Below are positions 3,240 through 28,099 of a DNA stretch of 58,229 nt, piece after piece (positions within the stretch are counted from its first letter, which is position 1; every line of letters begins with the position of its first letter). The translations under genes were made by a program, and so were the position numbers. The notes under the pieces are model-generated. The model was not told the DNA's origin. It made no database searches and saw only the letters and a program-made list of their open reading frames with translations. The stretch lies in contig JAGBTH010000140.1 of the NCBI GenBank assembly GCA_017631385.1, positions 1 through 58,229 on the forward strand, given 5' to 3'. The DNA comes from Kiritimatiellia bacterium. GTDB taxonomy: Bacteria; Verrucomicrobiota; Kiritimatiellia; RFP12; UBA1067.

Positions 3240-3800
3240 TTAAACCCCCTCGTAATCTATTTTGTCTAGCATTTTATCCAAATATACGATTCGATCCATG
3301 ACAGGTACGATCTCGTCTACAGTTGGATTGTGGTATAAAATTTTATCATTCTGATAGATTCTAAGTTCGATCTCTTTTAGATCAGAAGGTTTGATTTTAT
3401 ACTCCAAACAAAAAAGAGCAGTATATACTAATAGCTGCTCCATCTTGGCTGGTGTTTTACCAGTCTTTAAGTCATGTATTCTAAGTACACCATTTCTAAA
3501 AGAAATAGCGTCTGCTGTACCGAAGAATCTATCGGAATAATATAAGACGACTTCAGTGCTCATCTTAAATCCGATAGCGTCGTTTACATAAGCATACAGA
3601 GTCTTAGCCGACTTAGGCTGTTTGATACCCAAATCGATGGTGCTCTTAGCCCAAGCGTGAAGAATGGTTCCTCTTTCGGTGGCTTTCATTTCAGTATATG
3701 ATTGTACGACTTTATCGTCGTCATACCTCAGCCAGCTAGATTTACTTGCGCTAAACGGCGCGTGTAAGCCTTCGTATTGAGTATGTTTAATAAACTTCAT
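3240..3800 (-). CDS. PD-(D/E)XK family nuclease (RecB/Cas4-like fold, no Cys cluster)
   Basis: GTADAISF...LRIHDLKTGK (D...D-x-K) followed by QLLVYTALF (QxxxY). Confidence 0.65.
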   Translation of the reverse strand: MKFIKHTQYEGLHAPFSASKSSWLRYDDDKVVQSYTEMKATERGTILHAWAKSTIDLGIKQPKSAKTLYAYVNDAIGFKMSTEVVLYYSDRFFGTADAISFRNGVLRIHDLKTGKTPAKMEQLLVYTALFCLEYKIKPSDLKEIELRIYQNDKILYHNPTVDEIVPVMDRIVYLDKMLDKIDYEGV

Positions 3801-4279: not shown

Positions 4280-4711
4280 TTACTTTAGTGTTTTCGAAAT
4301 GATCTCGCCATCCACATTGAAATCCAACAATACGGATTTTTCGTACCCGTTCACAAATCTTGAAGCGCCTCCCTCGGAAAGTCCGAAGTCTACATAATTG
4401 TCGCCGTTAGGATTATTTTCTTCATAAATCCAACCAACCACTTGTCCGGCTTTTGAGCGGGGAATACCCAACATGTCATAGACCTCGTTTAAGAATATAT
4501 GACCCACCGACTTCAGTTTATCGTTTGCATATCGTTCCTGAAGTTTGATGAACGCCAAATTCATTTCGCTATTGTCATTCCACATCGGACTACTCTCGTC
4601 AAAAAACCGTGCGTATTGGCTGTATGTTTTTACACCCTTTGCCTCAACCTGTTTGACATCAACCTTTACCGGTTCGTCACTTTCAATTTTGATCGTGATA
4701 ATAGTTTCCAT
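4280..4711 (-). CDS. paralogue containing only the C-terminal domain of the 17845/20459/21496 family
   Basis: IFLNEVYDMLGIPRSKAGQVVGWIYE...VDFGL...VLLDFNVDGEII is closely similar to the C-terminus of the 320-aa protein at 17845..18807. Confidence 0.65.
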   Translation of the reverse strand: METIITIKIESDEPVKVDVKQVEAKGVKTYSQYARFFDESSPMWNDNSEMNLAFIKLQERYANDKLKSVGHIFLNEVYDMLGIPRSKAGQVVGWIYEENNPNGDNYVDFGLSEGGASRFVNGYEKSVLLDFNVDGEIISKTLK

Positions 4712-5033: not shown

Positions 5034-5084
5034 TTTTGACCAAAAACGGTCACCCTTGATCGAAACGCACACAAATGGTCAAAT

Positions 5085-5107
5085 AAAAGTGACCAAAAGC
5101 CCACTTT
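5085..5107. repeat. 23-nt direct repeat, copy 2 (AAAAGTGACCAAAAGCCCACTTT)
   Basis: Identical to 5011..5033. A partial third copy, AAAAGTGACCAC, lies at 5115..5126. Confidence 0.9.
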
Positions 5108-5132
5108 CCAAATCAAAAGTGACCACAAATTT

Positions 5133-5612
5133 TTACTTCCCGAACATGTAAATATCCCGGTTTCCGAGCTTCGTAGCCTCCGCTTCAAGCCAGAAATCGT
5201 CGTACTTACCTAACCTGTCACCATAGCCACGACTCGTCATAAATATCCTGTACCAATATCTCAAAGCGCTAGCGATAGTGAAGAATACCATTACCGGACC
5301 GTACATAGCGTTCTGTATAGAATGACCGAGCTCGTGTCTTTTGGTCGCGCCATTCGCGCCTCTGTGAGTTATGATAAACATACCTAAGCACAACCCGCCC
5401 CAATTGCGTCCGATCTCGAAATGCCAGCAGCCAGCATACTTCCTCGGTCTTTTACCGATCAGTAACAAACCAAGTGCAGCGATGGCTCCGACAATATTCA
5501 TGAGAAGACCCCATGTGAGATTGAGAGTATAATATACTCTACGGTACTCACTCGGCTTCACTGGTCTCGCCTTCGTCAGCGCTGTCTTTATTTTCTGAAT
5601 CAGATTTCTCAT
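5133..5612 (-). CDS. membrane protein with HExxH zincin motif
   Basis: Two or three hydrophobic segments plus TKRHELGHSIQNAMYGP. GGAG lies upstream of the ATG at 5612. The start overlaps the upstream gene by 65 nt, so it is uncertain. Confidence 0.55.
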   Translation of the reverse strand: MRNLIQKIKTALTKARPVKPSEYRRVYYTLNLTWGLLMNIVGAIAALGLLLIGKRPRKYAGCWHFEIGRNWGGLCLGMFIITHRGANGATKRHELGHSIQNAMYGPVMVFFTIASALRYWYRIFMTSRGYGDRLGKYDDFWLEAEATKLGNRDIYMFGK

Positions 5613-6183
5613 TGAACTTCGCTATCTCCTTTCCTAAATTAGCTACTGCTTTGATTGCCCTAGCCGTTGTGTTTGCAAGCGTGTCGGCTTCCGCGGAAAG
5701 CTTGCATATAGAATTTATATCCGAAGTTTTGAATCTATCGGGATATGCCTTCTTGTACAACTCGACGTCCTGCTCCTCGAACGCGGGCTTGTCGTTCCGC
5801 CCCTCGAAGACCTTAACGAGCTCTTTGTTCGAGTACGCCTCTACATACTCGCCGTTGATCTCGAGTTTATTGTAACCATCGACACAGATGTCTGTTTTGT
5901 GCGTTACGACTTCATCCTTATGGATATAAGAAACAGTATAAGCTCGTAAGGGAATGAACTCGAAAAGTCTCTTGACCGCGTAGGTATCAATAACGTACTT
6001 ATTACCATTGGCTTTTTCCTTAAATTCCAGAACCTTAACCTTAGCTTCGAGCTTATTATTGAGAATCTGAAGTGCTTTGACATCTGACGCGAGATCCCTA
6101 ACCTCGTTGATCAGATTAACGTTTGTAAGCTCGAGGGATCTGATACGTTCCTTTAACTTCTTATTAAACATCTTTTTTCTCAC
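5548..6183 (-). CDS. hypothetical coiled-coil protein (211 aa)
   Basis: Long ORF with a heptad-like N-terminus and an acidic C-terminal tail. Confidence 0.6.
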   Translation of the reverse strand: MRKKMFNKKLKERIRSLELTNVNLINEVRDLASDVKALQILNNKLEAKVKVLEFKEKANGNKYVIDTYAVKRLFEFIPLRAYTVSYIHKDEVVTHKTDICVDGYNKLEINGEYVEAYSNKELVKVFEGRNDKPAFEEQDVELYKKAYPDRFKTSDINSICKLSAEADTLANTTARAIKAVANLGKEIAKFNEKSDSENKDSADEGETSEAE

Positions 6184-6544
6184 TTTCTTTTATGTAATTT
6201 TTATAGAGTTCGAGATCGACCATAACGAGCTCGTTTTCCTGTACCTGATAGACTTCCAGAAGCTCGGGATTAGGACCGTCAAACCAGAATTCGAGGAATC
6301 GACCGTTTGCTACGGGTTTCACCCACTGTGAGGGTTTCGGTTGGATAGATACGGCGTGTAACTTGCGATCCCCGCCAATATAATTAACAACCCAGGTGTA
6401 TCGGTGTACGCAGGCGCGTCGGAAAGTATATAACTCGCCCTTGGCTTCGTTTTTGAATTCGAGAATATCGCATCTTTTCGATAAATAATCTACCCTACCG
6501 TGCAAGATCGCGATTTCCCGTAACAACTTTTTCTTAGTAATCAT
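6164..6544 (-). CDS. hypothetical protein (126 aa)
   Basis: ORF with GGAGGAG RBS. Its LEFKNEAKGELY segment echoes LEFKEKANGNKY of the next gene, suggesting weak paralogy. Confidence 0.6.
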   Translation of the reverse strand: MITKKKLLREIAILHGRVDYLSKRCDILEFKNEAKGELYTFRRACVHRYTWVVNYIGGDRKLHAVSIQPKPSQWVKPVANGRFLEFWFDGPNPELLEVYQVQENELVMVDLELYKNYIKESEKKDV

Positions 6545-6553
6545 ATCTCCTCC

Positions 6554-6814
6554 TTAAATATATAAATAGAATGTTGATGTGAGATTGATGAGATCGTCCG
6601 TACGGTTTATCGCCCTAACCTCGCGATCTTTTAAGTGCGGCTCGTTGTTTAAGAATGCCTCTGAAGCCGTCCGTACCATGTTGTATTTACCCGGGAAGAA
6701 GTGATAAACATCGCCGGTGTTTTCGTCTACGATATATACTTCAATGTTGTTGTTTCTAGGAAAATCCTCGCTAGAGCTGTTTTGAACGAGAGTGTCGATT
6801 ATCTTACTGTTCAT
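6554..6814 (-). CDS. hypothetical protein (86 aa)
   Basis: ORF whose start overlaps the stop of the upstream small ORF. Confidence 0.55.
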   Translation of the reverse strand: MNSKIIDTLVQNSSSEDFPRNNNIEVYIVDENTGDVYHFFPGKYNMVRTASEAFLNNEPHLKDREVRAINRTDDLINLTSTFYLYI

Positions 6815-6974
6815 TGTCTACTCCTCCGAACCAGGACTCGATGGACGCTCTCTGCTCGTCTGAGCACTCGCCGAAAATAACTTCGTCGGGTCGTTCGTCG
6901 ATAATATAATCCATGATCCACGCCTTCTGCTCGTCTGTAAGATCGTCGAATTTTATTACGGATTTGTTCTCCAT
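6804..6974 (-). CDS. small acidic protein (56 aa, below the ORF-track cutoff)
   Basis: AAAGAAAGGTAAAAAG-ATG. Translation: MENKSVIKFDDLTDEQKAWIMDYIIDERPDEVIFGECSDEQRASIESWFGGVDNEQ. It fills an otherwise empty 170-nt gap. Confidence 0.45.
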   Translation of the reverse strand: MENKSVIKFDDLTDEQKAWIMDYIIDERPDEVIFGECSDEQRASIESWFGGVDNEQ

Positions 6975-6990
6975 CTTTTTACCTTTCTTT

Positions 6991-7842
6991 TTAAATTAAA
7001 TATGGAACCTCTATGACCTCGCCACGATCGGTAACGATAGATTGCATTACCTCTCCAGAAATAGGATCGACAAATATATCATCGATGCCGCAATTGTTAT
7101 AGCGATAGTCGTCATAAATATTCCGCTCTTCTTCTAGGAACTCTTCCTCGAGTTCGTGTATAGTTTGGGTTCTAGTGAAACATCTACGACTCGTGTTGTT
7201 TGTCTCTTGTAAAGTGCGTAGAATATTCCACAGATCCGGGTGGTTGTAATATATGTGCTGTAGTTCACGCTTACTAGCGTTCGGACAGAAGAAACATCCG
7301 TTCCTGCCGGTTATCTTATAAATAGGAGAAAGTAATCCGGCCCGCTCGCAAATATCCATGGCGTCTTTTTCGGTGATACCGTACTTAGCCAATATGGATA
7401 CTTTGTTAGTTCCTTCGAGTCTCTTCAAGCGTTTTGGCTCGTCGGCGGCTATTCCAACGTACTGAATAAACTCGCCGTCTTGCTCGCTTAGATATTTTCG
7501 TATGGGCGGAATCTTACAGTCTCTATTAATATTACAAAGACCCGGTATGGGGAAACCACGTAGTAACCCCATCGTTGAACCTCTAACTCGTACCGTGTGA
7601 AAATCATCCCACATTGTTTTGTCCGATCGCAGCACAATTGTGTTCAGACCGTAGAGCTCTTTCAACTTTGGGATCGCTACGTTATATATGAAATCTCTGT
7701 GTTCGGGAAACTCGCCGCTAATCTGATCGGTAAACATTACCTCAGAATATATAACCGCGTCGATGGGTTCGCCGTGCTCTTTTGCTACAATTATCTGAGC
7801 CAAGCTATCCTTTCCGAAACTACAGCTTGCTATGTATTTCAT
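6991..7842 (-). CDS. PAPS-reductase-like PP-loop ATPase family protein
   Basis: N-terminal PP-loop SCSFGKDS and a C-terminal Cys pair, GRNGCFFCPN. Confidence 0.75.
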   Translation of the reverse strand: MKYIASCSFGKDSLAQIIVAKEHGEPIDAVIYSEVMFTDQISGEFPEHRDFIYNVAIPKLKELYGLNTIVLRSDKTMWDDFHTVRVRGSTMGLLRGFPIPGLCNINRDCKIPPIRKYLSEQDGEFIQYVGIAADEPKRLKRLEGTNKVSILAKYGITEKDAMDICERAGLLSPIYKITGRNGCFFCPNASKRELQHIYYNHPDLWNILRTLQETNNTSRRCFTRTQTIHELEEEFLEEERNIYDDYRYNNCGIDDIFVDPISGEVMQSIVTDRGEVIEVPYLI

Positions 7843-8156
7843 TCAGTGGGTTTGGGTTCGTTATAGCTTTTCCAGCTTATAGTGAGTATGAAACGGTAAA
7901 CCGGAGTAAACAACGTGTCCCTCGACTCTTGCGATTCCGCATCGACACAATACCCGTAATCTTTCAAACGTTTGATTATACTATAACCACACGTCTTATA
8001 ATCTTCCTCGGATAAGATATACCCGCATTCGTAATTACCGAGCTCGCACTCATGTTTTATACGGTCGCTTATTTCTTCGAGAAGCGTGTCGAGTTTTTCA
8101 TCGGCGTATTGATTGGCTAGCTCCTTAGCTTCCTTCGCGCTGAGTAGTCTGGTCAT
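7839..8156 (-). CDS. hypothetical protein (105 aa)
   Basis: 4-nt overlap coupling with the neighbouring genes. Confidence 0.55.
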   Translation of the reverse strand: MTRLLSAKEAKELANQYADEKLDTLLEEISDRIKHECELGNYECGYILSEEDYKTCGYSIIKRLKDYGYCVDAESQESRDTLFTPVYRFILTISWKSYNEPKPTE

Positions 8157-8335
8157 TCCGTACCCTCCCTACCCGGCTGGTCGGCTGAAGATTCATAAAC
8201 ATCCACCACCTGCTTATAAAGCCGGAGCCGACGTGCAGCCTCATCCAGAAGCTCCGCTATATGGTAGAGAACTCCATCTCGCCAGAGCATCTTTGCTGTT
8301 TTTTCCAGCTTTTCGATTAATTCATTGGTATCCAT
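8153..8335 (-). CDS. hypothetical protein (60 aa)
   Basis: ORF coupled to its neighbours. Confidence 0.5.
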   Translation of the reverse strand: MDTNELIEKLEKTAKMLWRDGVLYHIAELLDEAARRLRLYKQVVDVYESSADQPGREGTE

Positions 8336-8337
8336 TG

Positions 8338-8682
8338 TTATTCCTCCATTTCGGATTCTGTGATATATCTGTATCTGCGTCCTTTGTAGGGCTGACCGGT
8401 TCTACAAGCTTCATATATGCTAGACTCGTAAGCATCCACGGCGTGATCCGCGGCGCTCTTAGCGCTTATGAATATCTGGATAATATTGCCCTTCTCGTCG
8501 ATTAAAGCGACGTGCTTATGTTTCTTGATCGGCTTCACCTTATGGTCGTCGCGGTGATTAAAGCAAGTCCAAGAGCAGTACATTCTTTTACGACTGTCCG
8601 TATATACGTGCTCGGGAGTCGGATAGAATTCCTTGCCACACATCGGACAGAATCGAGTTACAAAATTTTTCTTACCTGGCAT
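8338..8682 (-). CDS. zinc-ribbon plus homing-endonuclease-type DNA-binding-domain protein (114 aa)
   Basis: CPMCGKEF...CSWTCF. The segment VALIDEKGNIIQIFISAKSAADHAVDAYESSIYEACRTGQPYKGRRYRY resembles NUMOD/IENR-type modules. Start trimmed to MPGKK, which has RBS AAGAGG. Confidence 0.55.
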   Translation of the reverse strand: MPGKKNFVTRFCPMCGKEFYPTPEHVYTDSRKRMYCSWTCFNHRDDHKVKPIKKHKHVALIDEKGNIIQIFISAKSAADHAVDAYESSIYEACRTGQPYKGRRYRYITESEMEE

Positions 8683-8687
8683 TTTTC

Positions 8688-8810
8688 TTAACCTCTTATT
8701 TGCATTATTAGAATATAAATGGCTAGGGCGAAACAGTAGAGCCCCGCTAAAATGACGGCGCCACCAGCTATCGCCATAACGCATGAGAATATGATGTCAA
8801 GTGTGGTCAT
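8688..8810 (-). CDS. 40-aa single-pass membrane peptide (not in the ORF track)
   Basis: GGAGGT directly upstream. Translation: MTTLDIIFSCVMAIAGGAVILAGLYCFALAIYILIMQIRG. ATGA overlap with the stop of 8807..9019. Confidence 0.45.
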   Translation of the reverse strand: MTTLDIIFSCVMAIAGGAVILAGLYCFALAIYILIMQIRG

Positions 8811-9019
8811 ACCTCCATGATCCTTTCCGCTATATTGTTTAATAAACAGAACACTTCCGAAACAGACACCTTAGTCTTGTCGGTATACGTTCCGAAGTGT
8901 AGCTCGAAAGTTTCTCGCATTTTTAGAATAGTTTCGAGTTTTGCCTCTCGCATTGCTCTAGCTCTCCCCGCCTCATAACCGTTGCGATATGCCGTTTCCG
9001 CTTTGTCGGGTGTGTACAT
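8807..9019 (-). CDS. hypothetical protein (70 aa)
   Basis: ORF with RBS. Confidence 0.55.
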   Translation of the reverse strand: MYTPDKAETAYRNGYEAGRARAMREAKLETILKMRETFELHFGTYTDKTKVSVSEVFCLLNNIAERIMEV

Positions 9020-9032
9020 GTTAAATCCTCGC

Positions 9033-9434
9033 TTAATGATTTATATCAATGTCGGGTAGCGCGCCATAGAATTTGATCTTGTAATGATAAGGGTCGGTAG
9101 TTGTTCCGGTGATATCTTCAACCACGTAGATTACATACTCGTTGAGATATACATAGTTTTTCTTATACTCGTTCGCGCCCGTTTTGCAGGTAACAACAAG
9201 CTCGCGCGTAGAATTATTGGACAGACTCATGTAGCCTTCCAGCTCCATAACGATAAGATCCGTTCTAGCATTGTAAACCGTAATCTTTCTAGTCACCTGG
9301 AAATTGTCCGCAGCCTGGGATAAGTTATGATTAACGTTATCTGCCGCGGTGCAGGACGATAAGGAGTACATCATGGCGATGCCCCCGAGTGTGATGAAGA
9401 TGTACCAAAGTAATGCGGAAATAATGCTTTTCAT
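9033..9434 (-). CDS. putative lipoprotein
   Basis: Signal peptide with a lipobox-like LSSC (MKSIISALLWYIFITLGGIAMMYSLSSC). Confidence 0.6.
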   Translation of the reverse strand: MKSIISALLWYIFITLGGIAMMYSLSSCTAADNVNHNLSQAADNFQVTRKITVYNARTDLIVMELEGYMSLSNNSTRELVVTCKTGANEYKKNYVYLNEYVIYVVEDITGTTTDPYHYKIKFYGALPDIDINH

Positions 9435-9454: not shown

Positions 9455-9497
9455 TTTCAAAATAAAAGAGAAGACACCGTGTTGATGTCCTCTCTCG
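9455..9497 (-). terminator. rho-independent terminator
   Basis: Minus strand: AGAGAGGACA-loop-TGTCTTCTCT + TTTATTTT. Confidence 0.65.
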
Positions 9498-9782: not shown

Positions 9783-11030
9783 TCACCACTTGACGTACTT
9801 ACTCTCATTGAAGTTTTTCTTGTCACGAAGCGCGCGACTAATCATTAAATCGATACCGGAACGAGATTTCAGATGATAGTAATACAGATCCTTAAAAGGA
9901 GTGTTTAATCTATCAATTCGACCGGCGGACTGCTGCATGATTTTATACGAATAATTCTGAGAATAGAAGACGATCGTATCTGTCGTTATACAATTCCAAC
10001 CCTCGGCTCCAGCGGTATACTGAACTAAATATACCCAGGTTTTACTCTCTGGTACCGGTTGATGTTTGTGACCATTCCACTCGGCTACATCAACGCCCGT
10101 GTTACTAAATATCTCTTTCAGTATTTCGAGCTCGTAGTCGAAGTTGTAGAATATGATCATTTTGGGATGTTTTTCGAATACCTCGAGCAGTGCTACTTGT
10201 CTGGATTGATCGCTGTTTACGATCCTACGCCAAACGTAACACAGCTCGGAAGCATTCTTAATCGGTGCGGGACGTTCTGATCCGTCCGGCCAAATCATAG
10301 TTTTAAAAGGATTTTTTCGTTCTTTAGTAACGTCTCTATATCTTTCGAGATCATACCGAACATATACATCCTCATGGTGCGACACGGTTCCTCTTTCGAA
10401 CTCCATGTCTACCAAGATTTGATTTCGCTGACGGATTAGACGACCAGTATTTACATATCGATCTATCTTCGGATACTTGGAGAAACGAGAATATACAACG
10501 TGTTCGTCTATGAATTCTTGCTTTGTCTTGTAGAACCCATTAGCTCGGAACACCGGAATATAATCCGTCCAAGTATCGCCAGGAGTGGCGGATAGTAGAA
10601 TCCACTTATTTTTTTTCGCTATCTTTAGGAAAGCTTTAACCCACGCTCCTGATCCAACCACACGCTGCTCGTCAAATATAAAGAATGCTCCGTAGACATT
10701 CGAATATTTTTTGATGTTGTTCCAAGAGTCTATAACCACATTTAAACTCTTGTAATAGGTGAGCTCTGGGTCTGGAGATATAAGGAATGGTGTGAGTTCT
10801 CCTTCCCATTCCCTAGTATCTCTTTTTCTAGCAGTGGTGATTATGTATAGATCTCTAGGATTGGTCATGGGTGAATATCGTTTGGGGTCTTCGATACCGC
10901 CTCCGCATTCACGGAAGTAATATGCGATAGCGGTTCTAGATTTACCGGAACCGACTCCTCCGCACAATATACACCCATTTTTCATTTCATTGACGGCTTT
11001 TAACTGATAATCTCGTAGATTAATAGCCAC
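9783..11030 (-). CDS. SF2 (DEAD/SNF2-like) helicase
   Basis: LRDYQ, Walker A GGVGSGKS, Walker B FIFDEQ, LLSATPG and motif VI QQSAGRIDR. Confidence 0.8.
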   Translation of the reverse strand: MAINLRDYQLKAVNEMKNGCILCGGVGSGKSRTAIAYYFRECGGGIEDPKRYSPMTNPRDLYIITTARKRDTREWEGELTPFLISPDPELTYYKSLNVVIDSWNNIKKYSNVYGAFFIFDEQRVVGSGAWVKAFLKIAKKNKWILLSATPGDTWTDYIPVFRANGFYKTKQEFIDEHVVYSRFSKYPKIDRYVNTGRLIRQRNQILVDMEFERGTVSHHEDVYVRYDLERYRDVTKERKNPFKTMIWPDGSERPAPIKNASELCYVWRRIVNSDQSRQVALLEVFEKHPKMIIFYNFDYELEILKEIFSNTGVDVAEWNGHKHQPVPESKTWVYLVQYTAGAEGWNCITTDTIVFYSQNYSYKIMQQSAGRIDRLNTPFKDLYYYHLKSRSGIDLMISRALRDKKNFNESKYVKW

Positions 11031-12171: not shown

Positions 12172-12211
12172 AATAGTAAAAGAGAAGACACCGAATCGAT
12201 GCCTCCTCTTT
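12172..12211 (-). terminator. rho-independent terminator
   Basis: Minus strand: AAGAGGAGGCA-loop-TGTCTTCTCTT + TTACTATTT. Confidence 0.55.
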
Positions 12212-12224
12212 TGTGGTGGTAACC

Positions 12225-12797
12225 TTACATCTCGGGATATCTCTCTGCGAAACGGTCGATTTCCTGAACGACGTGCATGTTCTGTAAATATGCAGTACGT
12301 CCCTTCGAACCGTTAACCTCCCAGTCATAAGGTCTGATGTCGAGGTCTACGCCGAGAATATCAATGTCGTCAAGGCAGTCAATACTTTCCTCGTCGAGAG
12401 TAACGGGAGTACTTCTGCTGGACTTGAGATATATAACGGGACCTCTGTCGTTGAATTTGATCTTTACGGGAAGGAACATGAAAGGCGTGTCGCCCTCTTC
12501 ACGAGGAGGCTTAATCTTGATATTCCAACCAAGATCACTGAGAATATCAGCCACCTTTTCTGCCTCAACCCAACGAAGACGCGCGTCAAAGCGATCGTCG
12601 ATTACGTCTTCGAATTCGATTTCGTTTTCGATAAGAAACTTTCTATCGATGAGAGCGTCTGTGATGAGTAACGCGAAGTTACGATCTCCCTCTCGATTAA
12701 ATCTTGACTGACGGCCCGCAAAGTTTCTATAAGAACCGCCTACGAGTTTAGCGTCGTCAATCTGTAAAATGCCTCTAGGTGCAAATTCAATATGCAT
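12225..12797 (-). CDS. possible ssDNA-binding protein (T7 gp2.5-like) next to the replicase
   Basis: The function call rests on position beside the replicase and on a loose resemblance of DLDIRPYDWEVNGSKGRTAYLQNMHVV to the gp2.5-type C-terminal strand. The ORF itself is solid. Confidence 0.4.
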   Translation of the reverse strand: MHIEFAPRGILQIDDAKLVGGSYRNFAGRQSRFNREGDRNFALLITDALIDRKFLIENEIEFEDVIDDRFDARLRWVEAEKVADILSDLGWNIKIKPPREEGDTPFMFLPVKIKFNDRGPVIYLKSSRSTPVTLDEESIDCLDDIDILGVDLDIRPYDWEVNGSKGRTAYLQNMHVVQEIDRFAERYPEM

Positions 12798-12820: not shown

Positions 12821-15800
12821 TTAGTTTTTAGGTACAATTTTTCCACCCACGAACGGTGGTGAAATATAAGGCTCGTCGGAAACGAACCAATAGAAATCGC
12901 CGTACTTACCTATTGCGTCGATAGCGGCGTCTACCAACTTGTCATAATATGATCTATCGATGTCGGCTTCTTTTCCGGCATTCTTGACCATCTCTGACTC
13001 GAGCCAACGATAACCCTTCGATCCGGTTGCGGCTGAGAATTTGACATTACCGTCTCGATCCTTACCCTCACGAAGAAGCTCTCCGCCTCCGCATCCAGGC
13101 TTGATGGGACAGAAACTACCAACCTTTCCTACGAACTGATAGTCGTGGTCGTCCGCGAGAGTCTCGTTAAGATCCAAATATAGCGCCGAGCTTACGGATT
13201 TGGTCTCACACATATCAGTGAACTCTATAGGTTCTTTACTAAAGAGTTTCTTAAATACATATGGAACCTGGAACTGCGTACCGGTTGCGGTCCACTGTCC
13301 AGCTTCTTTACCGTCCTTATACTTGGCGATATATACCGCATCATTAACCAGACACATCCTATCGTAAGTAGCCTCATGCTCGAATGTGTAGCCGTACTGC
13401 TTACCATAGTCCATGATAAACTGAATTATCTCAGGGGTCGCATCGGGAATCTTGATCGAATCCGTCTTAATATGAGCCACGGTGTATCCTCTACTCTGAA
13501 CCTCGTGCTTAAGGTTGATCATGAACAGAGCTCCACGCTTGGCTACGATATTATCGATATTTCTGGGATCGCGGAACGGATTATCAAACGCGGCTGAGGT
13601 CAGACCGTAAACCGAGTTGATGGCGATCTTCAGCGCCTGAGCCAGATCCTTTGCTTTAGATTCGTCGTCCAAATATGGAGCGAGCTTGCCGTCCAGCATA
13701 GCTCTAGCCTTGTCGAACTCGCCGTGTTTTATTGCCACGCGAGCGTCTCTTATTTCCTGGAACCGCCTGGTGTACTCTGCGCCAAATAACTGCTCGGCAA
13801 TAATGCTAGCCGGATGCATCGAAGCAATATCCAGCAGCGCTACGTTACCGTACATACCCGGCTCAGAATATACGTAGCCACCCTCGCCTACTTCTTCTCC
13901 GCGATATATGGATTTACCGTTTTCGAATTTGTATCCGGGGAATATGGGTCTTCCGTCCTTGTCGAATACTGTGTAACCGTCTCCGAACTGGTTGTACCAT
14001 ACGTCATCGTCGGTCATGGTGAACCTATAGTGCTCCTCGGGCATTTCTCCCATATTTCTATAGTTGAATTGATCCTGAGGGTTGCGGTTGTTACCAAATA
14101 TAATTCTGGTAGTCAGAGAGTTCGTGGTGTCATTAACACACATGCCAGCCACATCGGCTAGAATCTGTCTAGCGATGAAATCGGCTTTGAGGTGGTTAAA
14201 TACCTTCTCGGTCGCAATAACGTCGTTATCACAATATTCCGCAACTTTGGTCCACATCGACTCCGGTACCGGCTTATCCCACGGTAAACCTAACTCTTGG
14301 TGGTGTATACCCAGCTCAATCTCCCATTTTTTCAGGGATTGCTTGGTGGCAGCAAAGTCGTAAACGTCCGTATACGATAAGTTATAAGCCTCTCCAAAGA
14401 ATGCGTTCTTACTTCCGCTAATTATCTTTTGAGATAGACCGTATAACTGCTCGTTCGTATAACCCATGAGTCGAGCGTAGAGAATATGATTATCGTATCG
14501 TCTACAGTTGAATCCTACCAACCTGAACTTCAGAATATCTTCGATTTCAGAAGGACTCGGGTTGATCATTCGAACAACCGGCTTTCCTTCACCCTCGACC
14601 TTCCAGTTGACCAGGAATAAGTTCGGGAATACCTCGACGTCGTAGAACACGAGCATCGCATTGTCGTTTCGTACGTTTTCAGAAGGGTCGTCTGATTTGA
14701 ATTGCATCTTGTTTACCAACTTGATACAATATTCGGCCTGATTGGTACTGTTTGCGGCAAACGCAAATATGGCATTGCGCATATCGGAAACGTCGTACTT
14801 CAAGCCATTTGCGTGAGCGTCTTCTAATATCTTATAGATAAAGTCGATACTCGGTTTGGTCCCAGGATGAATCTCTTTGTTAAGATTTCTCTTAATGAGA
14901 GTCCTAAGGCCTTTTTCGCTTTGAATAGCTTCGAAATTGACCAACTTACCATCTCCTTTCAGCGGTAATCCGGAGCTGATCGTAGCGATCGGTAAGTCGT
15001 TGCACTTAGTAAGCATTCGTCTCAGTGAGCTCTTCCCACTGAACACTTTTACTTCTATATGATCGTCATATATGCTGCTAAGCTTAGTGGGGTCACCAGA
15101 GTAAATATAATGAAGATGTATACCTTGGCCGCTTTTACTTACCTCGGCGTACGTAGGCGGCCATTTACTAGCCTCTTCAAGATTTTTTTCGAAGCACTTA
15201 TTGCCGTTTTCGTCCGGAATATCAAAGTCTATAACAATATGGTTTTCGGGAACCTTTACGAAGTGGAGCCTGGAGGTATCCAAATCTTTTAGGGCGGTGG
15301 TAACATTGTCCCACTTCTTGAATGGCGTCCCTTTTTCACTGGCGTATTGCGCTGGACAATCGACGCATTCAGCATCCAATATAGACTCTATCTCCTCGAA
15401 TCGAATACGCGTATCGGTAGATTTCTCCTTCTTACCTTTGGTTTGGGTGGTTTCAAATTTATCAGTCCTGAAACCGCTATAATAGCTGCGGACTCGAGAA
15501 CCGTCGTCCAGGTTAAACCTATCGTTGAACTCCCAAAAATAGTTTTTAAGCTCTTCTTTAAAGCTTCTTTGTGATAACGGATAAGGAACCTTCGCGTCAT
15601 CACAATATGTTTTGTACATTTCCCAGGCGGCCTTGAGTGTCGTGCCGTCCTCTTTTTTGAATACGTGATACGAGTCGATAACATAGTTGTAGAAATCGTT
15701 AGAAGCGCCAAGCATAGCTACGGGAATATAATTGTCGTACTTACCCGGATCGTCCAAATATATTTCCTTACAATGCCAAGCTATATGTCCTAACTCGAAC

Positions 15801-16777
15801 GCAACCTGCTTCATTATCGTACTGTATTCTTTAGGGTTTAATTTTTTACCAGACGGAGTTACGTCGATAAGCCTTCGTATAAGACCCGACTTCGCGTCCG
15901 TAATTTTTACCGGTTTATTCGTACCCATAAATAAGAAGCTCATGAAGCGGGTTGTATACCGGCCTTTGAACTTCTCATTAACAGTCATTTCTTCGTGAGA
16001 AACTAAACTGTTTAGTCTAGTGTTGTCTTCTATCCTAGATAGATCTCCATCGTGCTGAATTGCTACTAATGGGTTGGTTTTAAATGCTTCCAACGCGAAT
16101 TGGTCGCTACCCGAACCCAGGGCCCTAGCATCAAATACCGAATAATATCCCTCAAATAGTTGCTGAATAATATTCAAGATAGTCGATTTACCAGTTCCGG
16201 CGGCACCATATAGAACCATGAATTTCTGTAGATATTTCGATTCTCCAGATATAATTGAACCTATAGCCCACTCTATCTTATGTCTCTCTTCTTCTGAATA
16301 TAAAGTAGATATAAGCTTGTCATAAGCCGTAATAGGTCCGGGTTCTAATGGATAGCTAAGCCGTTTGCTGGCGTAATCTTTTTTATTAGTATCGTCGTTC
16401 GAGAATACGAGTTTTTCATCCAATGGTCGGAAAGAATCCCTCATCTGTTTCTGACAATACTTATGCCACTTATCGATCATTCCACTGTCGGCGTCACACA
16501 TATGCATGACCCTGACGGTGCCTTCGAATTTGTGCTTATTTTCTTTGTAATAAGCGTCAAGTTCTCGGTCGATAAGTTGCAAAGCATCTTGTTCTTTTGT
16601 GGACCATAAACCAAGATCTTCGAGCCAAATCGCATAAAAGTCGCGGCCTCGAATCATTAGATCAGAACTTTCACAAATCATAAACTTTGGATAGATTTCA
16701 TAGACATCACGTTTTGGTGAGCGCGTTGAAATCTTCAAAAAGTCGATCATTTCATCCCCAATACTCCTTTCATGCAA
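12821..16777 (-). CDS. fusion replicase: SF3 (D5/P4-type) helicase + AEP prim-pol domain + family B DNA polymerase
   Basis: Helicase: GAAGTGKST, IQHDGD, FLFMGTN. AEP: HIVIDFD, SGQGIHLHY. Exonuclease: FYDVEVF, RRYDNHIL, YCDNDV. Polymerase: LDIASMHPAS, KIAINSVYG, IKTDSI. Confidence 0.9.
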   Translation of the reverse strand: MHERSIGDEMIDFLKISTRSPKRDVYEIYPKFMICESSDLMIRGRDFYAIWLEDLGLWSTKEQDALQLIDRELDAYYKENKHKFEGTVRVMHMCDADSGMIDKWHKYCQKQMRDSFRPLDEKLVFSNDDTNKKDYASKRLSYPLEPGPITAYDKLISTLYSEEERHKIEWAIGSIISGESKYLQKFMVLYGAAGTGKSTILNIIQQLFEGYYSVFDARALGSGSDQFALEAFKTNPLVAIQHDGDLSRIEDNTRLNSLVSHEEMTVNEKFKGRYTTRFMSFLFMGTNKPVKITDAKSGLIRRLIDVTPSGKKLNPKEYSTIMKQVAFELGHIAWHCKEIYLDDPGKYDNYIPVAMLGASNDFYNYVIDSYHVFKKEDGTTLKAAWEMYKTYCDDAKVPYPLSQRSFKEELKNYFWEFNDRFNLDDGSRVRSYYSGFRTDKFETTQTKGKKEKSTDTRIRFEEIESILDAECVDCPAQYASEKGTPFKKWDNVTTALKDLDTSRLHFVKVPENHIVIDFDIPDENGNKCFEKNLEEASKWPPTYAEVSKSGQGIHLHYIYSGDPTKLSSIYDDHIEVKVFSGKSSLRRMLTKCNDLPIATISSGLPLKGDGKLVNFEAIQSEKGLRTLIKRNLNKEIHPGTKPSIDFIYKILEDAHANGLKYDVSDMRNAIFAFAANSTNQAEYCIKLVNKMQFKSDDPSENVRNDNAMLVFYDVEVFPNLFLVNWKVEGEGKPVVRMINPSPSEIEDILKFRLVGFNCRRYDNHILYARLMGYTNEQLYGLSQKIISGSKNAFFGEAYNLSYTDVYDFAATKQSLKKWEIELGIHHQELGLPWDKPVPESMWTKVAEYCDNDVIATEKVFNHLKADFIARQILADVAGMCVNDTTNSLTTRIIFGNNRNPQDQFNYRNMGEMPEEHYRFTMTDDDVWYNQFGDGYTVFDKDGRPIFPGYKFENGKSIYRGEEVGEGGYVYSEPGMYGNVALLDIASMHPASIIAEQLFGAEYTRRFQEIRDARVAIKHGEFDKARAMLDGKLAPYLDDESKAKDLAQALKIAINSVYGLTSAAFDNPFRDPRNIDNIVAKRGALFMINLKHEVQSRGYTVAHIKTDSIKIPDATPEIIQFIMDYGKQYGYTFEHEATYDRMCLVNDAVYIAKYKDGKEAGQWTATGTQFQVPYVFKKLFSKEPIEFTDMCETKSVSSALYLDLNETLADDHDYQFVGKVGSFCPIKPGCGGGELLREGKDRDGNVKFSAATGSKGYRWLESEMVKNAGKEADIDRSYYDKLVDAAIDAIGKYGDFYWFVSDEPYISPPFVGGKIVPKN

Positions 16778-17844: not shown

Positions 17845-18807
17845 TTATTCTCCTTCGTAAATGCGGTCGATAATTACTCCATCAACGTTAAAGTCAAGCA
17901 GGATGCTTCTCTCACGTCCGTTTACAAAATCGCGTCTTCTAGCGTTATTGTAATATCCATCGTAAATGCCGAAATCTACAAAGCTATCGATCGTAGGATC
18001 TTTCGGATCATAGCGCCAGCCTACAACCTGACCAGCCTTAGACTTAGGGATGCCGAGCATTTCATATACCTCGTTCAAGAATAAATATCCCTCGCGCTCG
18101 AGTCTCTTGCTAGCCTCGGCCTGCTGCATCTTAAGGAACGTGAGATTATAGCCGGGATCTTTGGTCCAGCCAGCGCAATACTCGTCGAAGAACCTAGCGT
18201 AATCACTAACGTTTCTAGGATCAAGCTCGTTTACGGTGGTTTTAACCTTTTTTTCCTTGCCGTTTTCGTCTACGACAACTTCCTCGACCTCTTTCACCTT
18301 GATGTTGTGTCTGAGTTCGCGATCGATCTCCTTGCCGAATCGGTCGACGACACGACCTCTATATTCCTTGAAGCTCTTATCGATGGTTGCGTAAGCAGCG
18401 GCAGTAGCGATGTAACGCTTACGAAGGATGCCGTGAGATGTCAGCATGCAGCCAAGGGATGCCGCGCCGAGAATAACCGCGGGGCCATAAAGCTTGGCAA
18501 GCTTGACACCCGTATGTGCGTATGTGATAGTGAGATCCTTTTTGCTATCTTCCGCAGTATATTCTCTACCATCGGCGGTCGCACCTTTCTCGGTGGCAGT
18601 GTGGATCTCTTCGATGGTTTTCTTTGATTCGGATATAACATCCGTGACCTTCAGCGTTGCCTTACAAGCCAGAACGGCACTCGCCACAACACCAACGGTT
18701 CCGGCTACTGCGAGAATCTCGGGACTATGTTTCTTGAGCTGGAACCCGGTTTTGTAAAATGCTCTGCTCACACCTGAGATAATTTGTGCTTTAGTCATTT
18801 TTATCAT
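17845..18807 (-). CDS. paralogous TM-anchored protein, family member 1 (320 aa)
   Basis: N-terminus KKHSPEILAVAGTVGVVASAVLACKATLKV plus the C-terminal GIPKSKAGQVVGW domain. It resembles what I recall as a DUF6353-type family, which is unverified. Confidence 0.65.
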   Translation of the reverse strand: MIKMTKAQIISGVSRAFYKTGFQLKKHSPEILAVAGTVGVVASAVLACKATLKVTDVISESKKTIEEIHTATEKGATADGREYTAEDSKKDLTITYAHTGVKLAKLYGPAVILGAASLGCMLTSHGILRKRYIATAAAYATIDKSFKEYRGRVVDRFGKEIDRELRHNIKVKEVEEVVVDENGKEKKVKTTVNELDPRNVSDYARFFDEYCAGWTKDPGYNLTFLKMQQAEASKRLEREGYLFLNEVYEMLGIPKSKAGQVVGWRYDPKDPTIDSFVDFGIYDGYYNNARRRDFVNGRERSILLDFNVDGVIIDRIYEGE

Positions 18808-20458: not shown

Positions 20459-21229
20459 TCATTCGAAATGGTGCTTTGGCGGACGTACATAATCAAGCAC
20501 GATACAAGGTCTATCGTACTCGTCCTTACCCGGATTGTAGTCGATCTCGATGAGACCGTCGGCAAGATTCCAACCAATATAATCGCTGATATCGGTTTTC
20601 TCCAGACCGATCTCGTAATAGAAATCGGTTAAGGATATGGATCCGCTCATATCAAACATCATTTGTCGGTTGAGCTCATTTACAACCCTTTTGACCTTGT
20701 CGATATCATGCTTAAAATATCTTTTCGATACTGGATCGCAGAATAGTGTATCGCCTTTATCCGTGATATACACCTCATGCTTGCTTATCGGGTTTTCATC
20801 AAGCCTTTTCTGACTGACCTTTTCGCGAACCTCTCGTTCCTTTTTTTCACCGATCGTCTCGATGACTTTTTCTCGATATTCGGTAAGAGCAGTCTCCGAA
20901 ATCTTATAAGCGGTTGCTAGTGCTGCGTTTCTACGAAGATTCACGGATGTAGCGCCGAATATGCAACCACCCGAAACCACTCCGATTACGGCAGCCGGAA
21001 TATAACACCTCCAGCAGGTTTTGATGGTTTCTATCGGCGTTAACTCTTCCCTATCTTCCTCAAACTTACGATCGTCTATCAGCCGTAAAGCTTTTGGCGT
21101 AGCTTTTACTGCTAATACGGTCGAGGTGATCATACCAGCAACGCCAATACCGGTTAGGATTTCCGGACTGTGTTTGGATATCGACGACCCAACGCCTTTT
21201 ACAAGTTTCGTGAAATTTAACTTATTCAA
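20459..21229 (-). CDS. paralogous TM-anchored protein, family member 2 (256 aa)
   Basis: N-terminus SKHSPEILTGIGVAGMITSTVLAVKATPKA. TTG start behind AAAGGAG. Confidence 0.65.
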   Translation of the reverse strand: MNKLNFTKLVKGVGSSISKHSPEILTGIGVAGMITSTVLAVKATPKALRLIDDRKFEEDREELTPIETIKTCWRCYIPAAVIGVVSGGCIFGATSVNLRRNAALATAYKISETALTEYREKVIETIGEKKEREVREKVSQKRLDENPISKHEVYITDKGDTLFCDPVSKRYFKHDIDKVKRVVNELNRQMMFDMSGSISLTDFYYEIGLEKTDISDYIGWNLADGLIEIDYNPGKDEYDRPCIVLDYVRPPKHHFE

Positions 21230-21287: not shown

Positions 21288-21512
21288 TTATTTAGCAAGC
21301 TTATCGTCGATCATGCCTTCGACCAGTTTCAGTAGTTCTTGCTTATCTGCTTCTGCCTTCTGTACCTTAACCTTTTCGGCAATTATATTTCCGCCAAAAG
21401 TCATGATTATGCCAAGAACCGGTAATAACTTCTTAAGAAAATTAACCAACGCTATCGCCTCCTTTCCATAATATAAGTTGTCGCTTTCGCGGTCGTTAAT
21501 ATAAATACTCAA
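21288..21512 (-). CDS. 74-aa membrane protein
   Basis: Central hydrophobic helix LLPVLGIIMTFGGNII. Confidence 0.55.
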   Translation of the reverse strand: MSIYINDRESDNLYYGKEAIALVNFLKKLLPVLGIIMTFGGNIIAEKVKVQKAEADKQELLKLVEGMIDDKLAK

Positions 21513-22257
21513 TTATAGGGTCGTTGTCGATTATTACTATATAACCTTCCATACCGTCTGCAAATTTGACCTTTTCGTGTCTAAATTCAATGCTCGCATG
21601 ATTATAGAACTCCCGCATGGAATCTATAGACCATCCGACCTCGGCGCCATACTCAGTTCGAGCGAGACCAACCATGTCGTAGAAGTCGTTTAGACAAATA
21701 TAACCGCGGGTCTCGAAATCCGCATTAAATTGCCGTTCTACATTTAATAGATCTTCGATGGTTGATTCAAAGAATCGAAGAGAGTGATTATCAAAGAATA
21801 TAAGATTTTCTTTGGTTACAGAATTTTCGAAATCATCATATTCGTCTTTCATGATTTCTTTCCGAACTCGATCATCGGCGTCATCGCCATATAGTTCCTT
21901 GACTTTTTCTCTATATTTTTTAAACGATACATCCAAAAGCGCGTACGCGCTCATTAAAGAAGCTTGTCTGTGTTTATTCAATATATTTGCCCCAACTATA
22001 CAAGCCACCGTGGAAACACCGGTTATAACCGTCGGAATATATGCGGGACTAGCCGCAACAACGGTTTCTAGTTTCGTGAGTTTTTCGCCCTTATCGACCT
22101 CCGCCTCGACCACCAAGCAAATAGCTTTGGGTGTAGCTTTAGCCGCTAACACGGCAGTGGCAACCACGCCAATACCGCCTACGCAAGTTAATATAGTGGA
22201 TGCGTTTTTATGAAGAAACTTACCGGCTTCCGACCCAATCTTTTGTAAAAATGACAT
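21496..22257 (-). CDS. paralogous TM-anchored protein, family member 3 (253 aa)
   Basis: N-terminus NASTILTCVGGIGVVATAVLAAKATPKA and C-terminal ...YGAEVGW. Confidence 0.65.
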   Translation of the reverse strand: MSFLQKIGSEAGKFLHKNASTILTCVGGIGVVATAVLAAKATPKAICLVVEAEVDKGEKLTKLETVVAASPAYIPTVITGVSTVACIVGANILNKHRQASLMSAYALLDVSFKKYREKVKELYGDDADDRVRKEIMKDEYDDFENSVTKENLIFFDNHSLRFFESTIEDLLNVERQFNADFETRGYICLNDFYDMVGLARTEYGAEVGWSIDSMREFYNHASIEFRHEKVKFADGMEGYIVIIDNDPIIEYLY

Positions 22258-22554: not shown

Positions 22555-22586
22555 CGCAAAAAGAAGAGACTTTATAGTCCCCTCTT
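22555..22586 (-). terminator. rho-independent terminator
   Basis: Minus strand: AGAGGGGAC-TATAAA-GTCTCTTCT + TTTT. Confidence 0.6.
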
Positions 22587-22820
22587 TTTTATTAGTTTCT
22601 TCTCGCTCCTTAAGTACCTACGCGTTTTCTTCTCTAATTTAGCTACATCCTTATCGTGTCGTTTAATCATTTTATCAGCCACACGCTGTCCGAGCTCATA
22701 TCCGGATTTAAACATGCAACCCAAAGCTACTATGCCTATTACGCACATTAAGCTTATAGAATCCGCATGTATGATAGGTGTTGCTCTAGCGGTCGAACTG
22801 ATTTTTACATATTCGTCCAT
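22572..22820 (-). CDS. 82-aa membrane protein
   Basis: Hydrophobic helix LMCVIGIVALGCMF and a basic tail. Confidence 0.6.
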   Translation of the reverse strand: MDEYVKISSTARATPIIHADSISLMCVIGIVALGCMFKSGYELGQRVADKMIKRHDKDVAKLEKKTRRYLRSEKKLIKKRGL

Positions 22821-23261: not shown

Positions 23262-23292
23262 ACAAAAAGAAGAGACCGTTAAGTCCCCTCTT
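23262..23292 (-). terminator. rho-independent terminator (29-nt core identical to 24938..24966)
   Basis: Minus strand: AGAGGGGAC-TTAACG-GTCTCTTCT + TTTT. Confidence 0.65.
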
Positions 23293-23304
23293 TTTAAGTT
23301 GTAT

Positions 23305-23832
23305 TTACTTCGTTTTCGGGAGAAGTTTGTTAATAAATCCTCTTCCCATTATTGTTGTAACGCTTCCAGTCTCTTCAAACTTCAAAGATTTCAACGTTCC
23401 CCAAATCGTAATTAACGACGGAACCACGATGCCGGTTACCGCTATGATATTTCGAATCAATCGATCCTTATCCTCGCTCTCAGCCTGCTTAGCCTTCAAA
23501 GAGTTTTCAAACTCCGTAACAGCATTAGCGCTTTCGTTCTGCTTGGTCTTGAGGTCCCGCTCAAATTCGGCTGCTAACTCTGCAACCTTAACTTGACGCT
23601 CCTTCAATTCCCGCTCGATTTCAGCAGCTTCTTCTGCATACTTCTGCTTTTCGGCTCTCTCTAGGGCTTCGGCTTCAAGCTTATCTATCTCGATCGCTCG
23701 ATCTACAAGCTTAACCAGTCCTTCGACCGTCACTTTGTACTCATCGGTACCAACGCTCATCTCCTTCAGATATTTCATTTCGTCCTGGATTTCGTCACGT
23801 AATAACTGCCTCATTTCATTATCCATGTTCAA
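23305..23832 (-). CDS. coiled-coil protein with C-terminal membrane anchor (175 aa)
   Basis: E/K/A-rich heptads followed by IIAVTGIVVPSLITIWG. Confidence 0.6.
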   Translation of the reverse strand: MNMDNEMRQLLRDEIQDEMKYLKEMSVGTDEYKVTVEGLVKLVDRAIEIDKLEAEALERAEKQKYAEEAAEIERELKERQVKVAELAAEFERDLKTKQNESANAVTEFENSLKAKQAESEDKDRLIRNIIAVTGIVVPSLITIWGTLKSLKFEETGSVTTIMGRGFINKLLPKTK

Positions 23833-24935: not shown

Positions 24936-24966
24936 AAAAAAAGAAGAGACCGTTAAGTCCCCTCTT
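24936..24966 (-). terminator. rho-independent terminator (29-nt core identical to 23264..23292)
   Basis: AAAAAGAAGAGACCGTTAAGTCCCCTCTT on the plus strand at 24938..24966. Confidence 0.65.
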
Positions 24967-25034
24967 CGATACCTCTAATTAACATTAGATGATCAGGTAT
25001 GCTAAATAATTGATTTGTAATTATTCGACGCGCA

Positions 25035-27655: not shown

Positions 27656-28099
27656 TTATGGATTATCGGGCTCCGCATACAGGTAATCACCATGCGCCCT
27701 AACTTTGGAGTAGATTTCATGCACATACACATTACCCATCTTGTCTTTCAAGGTTGTCGTTATATACTGTCGACCGTCGGCTTCATACTCTGGTTCGATA
27801 TCTACGGTATATTTCTTGGACAACGTTTTGGCGTATTTAGTACACCATCTCAGTCCAGTACTAGCCCGAGTTGCAAGAAACGAGAGTGCCTCGTCGGGGA
27901 TCGTAGCGTTACCTCGATCTTTTTGAGCCTTCAACTGACGATACATGACAAGTTCGCGATGCGCGCGTGCATAGTGTTCGGATAGTTTCCGTACTTCTTT
28001 GTTGGTCTTGTAACCGAGCTGCTCTGGAGTACGTCTAACGCCCCACTTCATACCTTTGACTCCGTGATGATAGAGCACATTGTTATATATCCACATCAT
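27656..28099 (-). CDS. YH(Y/H)GV.GMKWGVRR-tag protein, paralogue 1 (147 aa)
   Basis: N-terminus MMWIYNNVLYHHGVKGMKWGVRRTPEQ. It is the last gene of arm 2, next to the candidate attP. Confidence 0.65.
   Translation of the reverse strand: MMWIYNNVLYHHGVKGMKWGVRRTPEQLGYKTNKEVRKLSEHYARAHRELVMYRQLKAQKDRGNATIPDEALSFLATRASTGLRWCTKYAKTLSKKYTVDIEPEYEADGRQYITTTLKDKMGNVYVHEIYSKVRAHGDYLYAEPDNP

Follow-up and report, generated by a model that had tools for sequence, protein, structure and literature searches.

We describe a single long gene on the minus strand of a 58,229-nucleotide (nt) stretch of DNA (contig JAGBTH010000140.1 of assembly GCA_017631385.1, deposited as a Kiritimatiellia bacterium), the whole of which is called the window below. 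The product of this gene combines a superfamily 3 (SF3) helicase, an archaeo-eukaryotic primase (AEP), an alpha-helical domain (aHD) as well as a DNA polymerase of family B (PolB) in one chain, and it is compared throughout with GP55 of Lactococcus phage 1706 (YP_001828703). The gene and its parts are as follows, in amino acids (aa) where protein positions are given.

12821-16750, minus strand: replicase coding sequence, 1309 aa from the ATG at 16750, with the stop codon at 12821-12823
16301-16750, minus strand: N-terminal part of the helicase module (aa ~1-150), with family-conserved columns and no named domain
15872-16213, minus strand: SF3 (D5/P4-type) ATPase core with Walker A, Walker B, motif C/sensor-1 and arginine finger
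15530-15697, minus strand: C-terminal domain of the helicase module, a putative winged helix (weak Pox_D5 match, C-terminal domain of PriRep5, model)
14951-15400, minus strand: AEP (PriS-like) primase catalytic domain (model, Foldseek, invariant motifs)
14708-14917, minus strand: aHD with four helices (positions 182-251 in the segment that was modelled)
14138-14680, minus strand: PolB 3′-5′ exonuclease subdomain with ExoI FYDVEVF, ExoII RRYDNHIL and ExoIII YCDNDV
12824-14137, minus strand: PolB polymerase subdomain (palm, fingers, thumb) and C-terminal tail, with motifs A, B and C

The listing of open reading frames (ORFs) gives 12821-16777 on the minus strand as a single ORF of 1318 aa from a TTG codon with zero internal stops, as an earlier note made from the sequence had claimed. 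The TTG at 16777 opens the maximal ORF and adds nine residues to the form that begins at the ATG at 16750. This ATG is most likely the start, which would make the product 1309 and not 1318 aa long, because (i) the alignment to every relative begins at residue 10 of the 1318-aa form, (ii) an AAAGGAG Shine-Dalgarno-like box precedes the ATG, and (iii) the exact 1309-aa product is present in public gene calls, from which the 1318-aa form is absent. The length of 1318 aa put forward earlier thus stands for the extent of the ORF and not for the likely product. The exact 1309-aa sequence is recorded on four contigs in a public protein collection; a search for contigs that encode the exact protein returned no match, so independent assemblies are not demonstrated. 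Residue numbers below refer to the 1309-aa form unless the 1318-aa numbering is stated.

A two-codon mini-ORF, ATG AAA TGA (16742-16762, minus strand), lies 8 nt past the AGGAG box, and its stop codon overlaps the ATG at 16750. The overlap could reflect translational coupling or chance. Its presence makes the assignment of the replicase start slightly uncertain.

The protein matches phrog_4210 end to end, and a match over positions 1-1291 of the 1304 in this profile, at 2061 bits, is not due to chance. All eleven motifs quoted in the earlier note are present, in the order and at the places given there, and a succession that runs from an SF3 helicase through an AEP primase to a PolB is upheld by Pfam/TIGR, PHROG, the family profile and AlphaFold/Foldseek. 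The helicase module ends at about residue 440 and the primase module (AEP plus aHD) at about residue 697 (1318-aa numbering); the junctions that had been placed near 15450 and 14700 match these boundaries. The aHD, which lies between the AEP core and the PolB, is a fourth functional element that the earlier reading had missed. Since Pfam is nearly blind to this protein, the support for its domains is drawn from PHROGs, from profile-versus-PDB searches and from structure.

The helicase motifs (1318-aa numbering) are GAAGTGKST at 191-199, IQHDGD at 240-245 and FLFMGTN at 281-287, with MGTN as sensor-1 and the RR of GLIRRLID as the arginine finger. Residues G185, G187, K188, T190, D234, D236, N278, R292 and R293 are invariant among the eight family members compared. 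The SF3 P-loop family DUF5906, the sole Pfam model above its cut-off on the whole protein, matches residues 189-302 with 51.9 bits (cut-off 27.6 bits), and TIGR01613, the C-terminal domain of P4-family primases, matches with an E value of 5e-13 and 48.5 bits, below its cut-off of 108.7 bits. In several PHROG ‘DNA primase’ families, it is the C-terminal helicase part that matches, and a profile of the eight family members run against the PDB finds residues 492-787 of SaPI5 PriRep5 (7OLA, E 5.4e-8), a structurally characterised SF3 helicase. Together, DUF5906, TIGR01613, the PriRep5 match and the invariant motif residues support the assignment as an SF3 helicase, which holds as a prediction from sequence. 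The first 150 or so residues, over which the confidence of the predicted structure is patchy, could be the counterpart of the N-terminal tier of hexameric SF3 helicases.

At the other end of the helicase module, the Pfam model Pox_D5 gives a weak match (E 0.0048, below cut-off), the PriRep5 profile match extends into the C-terminal domain of PriRep5, and residues 372-427 are modelled, with moderate confidence, as a helix-helix-beta-hairpin; the Foldseek matches of the module to winged helices are not significant. A winged-helix origin-binding domain at about aa 330-430, as in P4 gp-alpha, the D5-family helicases and SaPI5 PriRep5, is a tentative proposal that we consider rather doubtful. Were it correct, the domain would let the chain recognise the phage origin and load itself, which would add an initiator to the four published activities.

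The primase was modelled with AlphaFold as a segment of 257 aa (residues 440-696 in the 1318-aa numbering) from a 22-sequence alignment that did not include GP55. The model of the AEP and helical segment has a predicted local distance difference test (pLDDT) score of 88, and the top ten Foldseek matches in the PDB are all structures of pRN1 ORF904 or the phage NrS-1 prim-pol, with E values from 2e-5 to 3e-4 and probabilities of 0.97-1.00; the match ranked after these has an E value of 0.24. AEP motif I is HIVIDFD (513-519 in the 1318-aa numbering), which contains D508 and D510, motif II is SGQGIHLH, within SGQGIHLHY at 549-557 of the same numbering, and E566 in IEVKV is the invariant acidic residue; D508, D510, S540, G541, G543, H545 and E566 are invariant in the eight family members. 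Only one sequence family, phrog_3022 ‘DNA primase’, matches the primase (E 6.4e-5). Judged from the model, the primase is a divergent AEP that is recognisable through its fold and motifs. D510 aligns with D509 of GP55, and RNA primer synthesis was attributed to the PriS-like domain after GP55 had been compared with a D509A mutant (PMC12205980). In the aHD, the GP55 counterparts of Y652 and F664 are Y655 and F667, and mutating these abolishes primer synthesis (PMC12205980). The aHD, which according to the same paper shows no homology to the helix-bundle domain, is essential for priming by GP55, which has neither a PriL nor a helix-bundle domain (PMC12205980).

In the PolB exonuclease subdomain (1318-aa numbering), FYDVEVF lies at 711-717, RRYDNHIL at 759-766 and YCDNDV at 848-853, and in the polymerase subdomain motif A, LDIASMHPAS, lies at 982-991, motif B, KIAINSVYG, at 1050-1058 and motif C, IKTDSI, at 1103-1108. 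Over residues ~925-1085, the family profile matches E. coli Pol II in the PDB (E 2e-7), and also archaeal PolBs, among them that of P. abyssi (E 6e-5), and Pol alpha (1.8e-4), while phrog_1252 ‘DNA polymerase’ matches residues 686-1158 (E 1.5e-47); with the motifs, these matches support the predicted PolB, an assignment that holds. D704 and E706, invariant in the family, align with D712 and E714 of GP55, and D974 aligns with GP55 D949. Mutation of D712/E714 abolishes the exonuclease activity of GP55 and mutation of D949 its polymerase activity (PMC12205980).

Motif C reads HIKTDS at 13454-13471 (minus strand), a Lys standing where the first Asp is usual, and KTDS is found in all eight family members. 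Nearly all PolBs carry DTD in motif C, including this first Asp. Because GP55 is active, the family can be taken to be active despite the Lys. The first motif C Asp is also absent from piPolB (PMC7544198). Some 35 aa (EMPEEHYRFTMTDDDVWYNQFGDGYTVFDKDGRPI) are inserted between the exonuclease and the palm of the window protein, at residues ~898-932 (~13960-14060, minus strand). The homologues of actinophages and of phage 1706 do not have this insertion; Faecalibacterium phage FP_oengus has a shorter one in the same place.

BLASTP aligns the window protein collinearly with GP55 (residues 6-1285 with 10-1298, 40% identity, 909 bits), and every residue mutated in PMC12205980 is identical in the two: K189, D509, Y655, F667, D712/E714 and D949 of GP55 are K188, D510, Y652, F664, D704/E706 and D974 here. 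In eight phages of Firmicutes and Actinobacteria these residues do not vary, except in Streptomyces phage DrGrey, which shows a Y-to-F and an F-to-L change. A tblastn search found relatives in 333 phage records, annotated as ‘DNA primase/polymerase’, ‘helicase/polymerase’ or ‘DNA polymerase’, from phages of Gordonia, Arthrobacter, Streptomyces, Rhodococcus, Curtobacterium, Lactococcus and Faecalibacterium. The closest among the phage genome records is gp28 of FP_oengus (YP_009797554; annotated as ‘helicase/polymerase’ or ‘DNA polymerase’), which is 60.6% identical over an alignment that takes in 98% of the query. Similarity to a Lactococcus sequence was already noted in the 2010 record of Rhodococcus phage ReqiPoco6, the available part of which lists primase-C-terminal and PolB domains. 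When 10 kb of DNA around the gene were searched by megablast, no close phage genome turned up, but only a 695-bp stretch of 72% identity.

The distribution of these relatives bears on whether assembly or annotation has artefactually fused separate helicase, primase and polymerase genes into the long ORF. Such an origin would agree with the many relatives of the primase and helicase segments that are short (below 450-770 aa), and with a region at 5066-9125 of a 178-kb contig (CAXVQW010072368.1 of GCA_964261755.1) in which a homologue of 67-78% identity is called as four ORFs. However, 252 of the 333 phage records, mostly from cultured isolates, carry a collinear homologue that covers at least 80% of the query, which agrees with the remark in the earlier note that the ORF is no obvious assembly fusion. 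A phmmer survey of 1.84 billion cluster representatives (50% identity) with the 257-aa AEP plus aHD segment found 482 clusters at E ≤1e-3, 230 of them at ≤1e-30; among the 150 best, 109 have a length of 1200 aa or more and contain the module at about residues 430-720, and in these 109 it sits in the same fusion. The four ORFs of the 178-kb contig are collinear and lie in frames 2, 1, 2 and 3; because collinear pieces in different frames, here with three frame changes, point to frameshifts and not to separate genes, the frame changes are probably sequencing or assembly indels, or else belong to a decaying prophage copy. Finally, purified GP55 is an active single-chain enzyme (PMC12205980). An artefactual fusion therefore has next to no probability and is effectively refuted.

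The short relatives were also considered as natural split genes. They lie mostly on contigs of ~1-5 kb, and this explanation was rejected since those examined are fragments or frameshifted copies. Fragments such as the four-ORF locus inflate the count of short ‘DUF5906’ proteins in databases.

The ORF is intact, its four domains and the tested residues are conserved, and the gene context agrees; the window protein is very probably the orthologue of GP55, that is, a HelPrimPolB replicase that serves as the main replication enzyme of a temperate siphovirus. From homology to GP55 we infer its activities, nucleotide preference and oligomeric state. GP55 was described in silico as a fusion of SF3 helicase, AEP and PolB by Kazlauskas 2016 (PMC4889955), and the name HelPrimPolB was given by Kazlauskas 2020 to a PolB with an N-terminal SF3 helicase and a PrimPol domain (PMC7544198). 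The latter paper reports HelPrimPolBs as prevalent in metagenomes and as divergent in motif C and in KxY (PMC7544198). The domain organisation of the window protein is exactly that of a HelPrimPolB, its KTDS motif C fits the reported divergence of that motif, and we found no difference from the HelPrimPolB description. In Zhang 2025, purified GP55 is a ‘four-in-one replicase’ with helicase, RNA-primase, polymerase and 3′-5′ exonuclease activities (PMC12205980); no later paper that cites or extends this work was found. The helicase–primase–polymerase fusion is thus already published, named and biochemically characterised, and the window protein is a further member, so that the suggestion of a new architecture in the earlier note does not stand (PMC4889955, PMC7544198, PMC12205980). 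Nor is the arrangement rare, as the same note had thought it might be, the primase module alone being present in 482 clusters at 50% identity. The placement of the helicase ahead of the primase was rightly called atypical, since the primase is N-terminal to the helicase in 94% of fusions (Kazlauskas 2016, PMC4889955).

GP55 provides the template for how the chain may work. Its helicase uses UTP or dTTP, supports strand displacement and mediates dimerisation (PMC12205980). Its RNA primers are 2-22 nt long, start with GTP and are initiated preferentially at 5′-CCAAC-3′, and priming needs the PriS-like domain as well as the aHD, which is new (PMC12205980). The AEP makes RNA primers only and has no DNA polymerase role, and de novo DNA synthesis by the dimeric enzyme depends on NTPs plus dNTPs (PMC12205980). 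The primase and the polymerase have separate active sites, which can cooperate in trans (PMC12205980). By homology, the N-terminal SF3 helicase of the window protein would unwind duplex DNA; the central AEP, together with the four-helix aHD, would lay short RNA primers de novo on single-stranded DNA (ssDNA); and the C-terminal PolB would extend these primers, with its 3′-5′ exonuclease proofreading. The domains would stimulate one another and the active sites cooperate in trans within a dimer, forming a self-contained replisome that a neighbouring ssDNA-binding protein probably assists.

The gene product might instead act as a polyprotein, from which internal starts or proteolysis would release separate helicase, primase and polymerase enzymes. 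In favour of this, the domains are structurally rather independent, the primase and polymerase of GP55 cooperate in trans, and truncations of GP55 retain individual activities (PMC12205980). However, deletion of the polymerase domain nearly abolishes the helicase activity of GP55, and the helicase domain enhances polymerase and exonuclease activity as well as strand displacement (PMC12205980), an interdependence which indicates that the chain works as a unit. No evidence for processing is known, protease sites and internal ribosome-binding sites not having been searched for. We regard processing into separate enzymes as very improbable and a replicase that works as one chain as the better account.

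Several observations weigh against assignment of the window protein to the GP55 type. It is only 40% identical to the only characterised enzyme. It carries the ~35 additional aa between exonuclease and palm and is without a C-terminal insertion of ~45 aa found in GP55. The helicase module is modelled with a pLDDT of 59, and its best Foldseek matches, to the PrimPol of African swine fever virus (ASFV), have E values of 2.6e-3 to 5e-2, with no match at ≤1e-3; the low confidence probably arises because the alignment contained only relatives of 71-81% identity, and the matches, though not significant, hint at a fold of the D5-like helicase type. On the whole protein, no Pfam DNA_pol_B model reaches an E value of 1 and no Pfam AEP family matches at E values up to 1. 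A sequence profile of the primase segment found zero matches in the PDB, even at an E value of 10, and because of this the AEP assignment rests on fold and motifs.

The AEP could be pictured as a degenerate structural linker, with priming supplied by a host primase, by protein priming or by primer-independent, piPolB-like synthesis by the PolB. The missing Pfam AEP match speaks for such a linker, as do the absence of a PriL or helix-bundle domain (per PMC12205980) and a PolB motif C, KTDS, that is without the first Asp, as in piPolB. It is countered by DxD and SGxGxH motifs that are invariant across the family, by a fold that matches active prim-pols, and by the behaviour of GP55, in which the D509A, Y655 and F667 mutants tie primer synthesis to residues that are kept here and de novo synthesis needs NTPs (PMC12205980). 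A degenerate AEP is therefore highly unlikely, and an AEP that primes within a GP55-type replicase remains our reading.

The likeness to GP55 extends to the order of SF3 helicase, PriS-like AEP, aHD and PolB, to the length (1317 aa in GP55 and 1309 aa here), to the retention of all functionally tested residues and to shared companion genes, whereas phage 1706 is a dairy Lactococcus phage and the window belongs to a gut phage of the Clostridia type. Other proteins share parts of this design. Poxvirus D5, ASFV C962R PrimPol, pRN1 ORF904, NrS-1 prim-pol and SaPI5 PriRep5 contain the same two domain families, but the window protein reverses their order, with the helicase ahead of the primase. Unlike a typical prim-pol, GP55 and presumably the window protein have the unrelated aHD instead of a PriL or helix-bundle domain, in addition to a proofreading PolB. 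Pas55 of Actinoplanes phage phiAsp2 is the other known single-chain helicase–primase–polymerase fusion (SF3, DnaG primase and PolA), and differs in its DnaG-type primase and family A polymerase. In N4 dns, the AEP is likewise C-terminal to a helicase, but this helicase belongs to SF6 (DUF3987) and there is no polymerase. Pas55 and N4 dns are analogous solutions and not homologues over the whole chain.

With the fusion already published, named and characterised, the window protein has little value as a discovery. As a gut-phage representative that keeps the key residues, it could be of use in the comparative biochemistry and structural study of single-chain replisomes, and it might be tried as a reagent in primer-free DNA amplification. 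Pfam still misses two domains of such proteins, the AEP and the PolB, so that the proteins look novel when read by eye.

The neighbouring genes and other features of the window are as follows.

12225-12797, minus strand: phage ssDNA-binding protein (Pfam Phage_ssDNA_bind, E 2.5e-38; phrog_4787), adjoining the replicase downstream
9783-11030: SF2 helicase
3240-3800: PD-(D/E)XK exonuclease
461-3235, minus strand: candidate YonO-like RNA polymerase, 924 aa, matched end to end by phrog_4291 ‘RNA-dependent RNA polymerase’, with helix-turn-helix domains at both ends
25896-27536, plus strand: large serine recombinase (Pfam Resolvase and Recombinase; phrog_95 integrase)
12178-12212 and 9466-9496, minus strand: two strong, related terminator-like hairpins with 16-bp and 13-bp stems and the common core GAGAAGACACCG
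22557-22603, 23263-23309 and 24937-24983: repeated element of ~47 nt with the inverted repeat AAAAAGAAGAGAC...GTCCCCTCTTTTT, among small early genes
17845-18807, 20459-21229, 21496-22257 and 4280-4711, minus strand: four DUF6353 paralogues (one partial) within the early/replication region
27656-28099, 46991-47467 and 49247-49615, minus strand: three small paralogous genes, which have in common a DUF7211 motif at the N-terminus and a DNA repeat of 51 nt
6991-7842, minus strand: PAPS-reductase-like protein (phrog_424; Pfam PAPS_reduct barely above cut-off), in the replication/nucleotide-metabolism region

The ssDNA-binding protein is a likely partner of the replicase; the two genes have the same arrangement in FP_oengus, and phage 1706 has the same gene set. 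The ssDNA-binding protein, the SF2 helicase and the PD-(D/E)XK exonuclease parallel the orf66/orf67/orf69 set of phage 1706 and the gp30/gp35/gp54 set of FP_oengus. A context with the ssDNA-binding protein, the SF2 helicase, the exonuclease and the YonO-like RNA polymerase is common to phage 1706 and FP_oengus, and this shared gene set is discussed in bioRxiv 10.1101/842583. A YonO-like single-subunit RNA polymerase candidate is a reported signature of this phage group (bioRxiv 10.1101/842583), and the one in the window is arguably more intriguing than the replicase.

The window also carries tape measure, TerL, portal and protease genes, and is a temperate siphovirus-type genome, very probably that of a phage of gut Firmicutes. 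The serine recombinase is its sole plus-strand ORF of at least 200 aa with a family match, the other long plus-strand ORFs lying inside minus-strand genes, and the phage is probably temperate. FP_oengus, with a genome of 58.4 kb, is similar in size and has replication-module genes in common with the window; it differs in that protein identity is ~60%, nucleotide similarity is negligible, and its integrase is a tyrosine integrase in place of the large serine recombinase.

In the terminator scan, the hairpin at 12178-12212 lies directly past the ssDNA-binding gene and that at 9466-9496 follows the next gene block; the two therefore suggest transcription units in the replication module. The ~47-nt element could be a terminator or a regulatory site. 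FP_oengus has three DUF6353 paralogues. Two of the paralogues with the DUF7211 motif flank the large terminase gene (47483-49228), and all three may be HNH-type or homing endonuclease-like genes.

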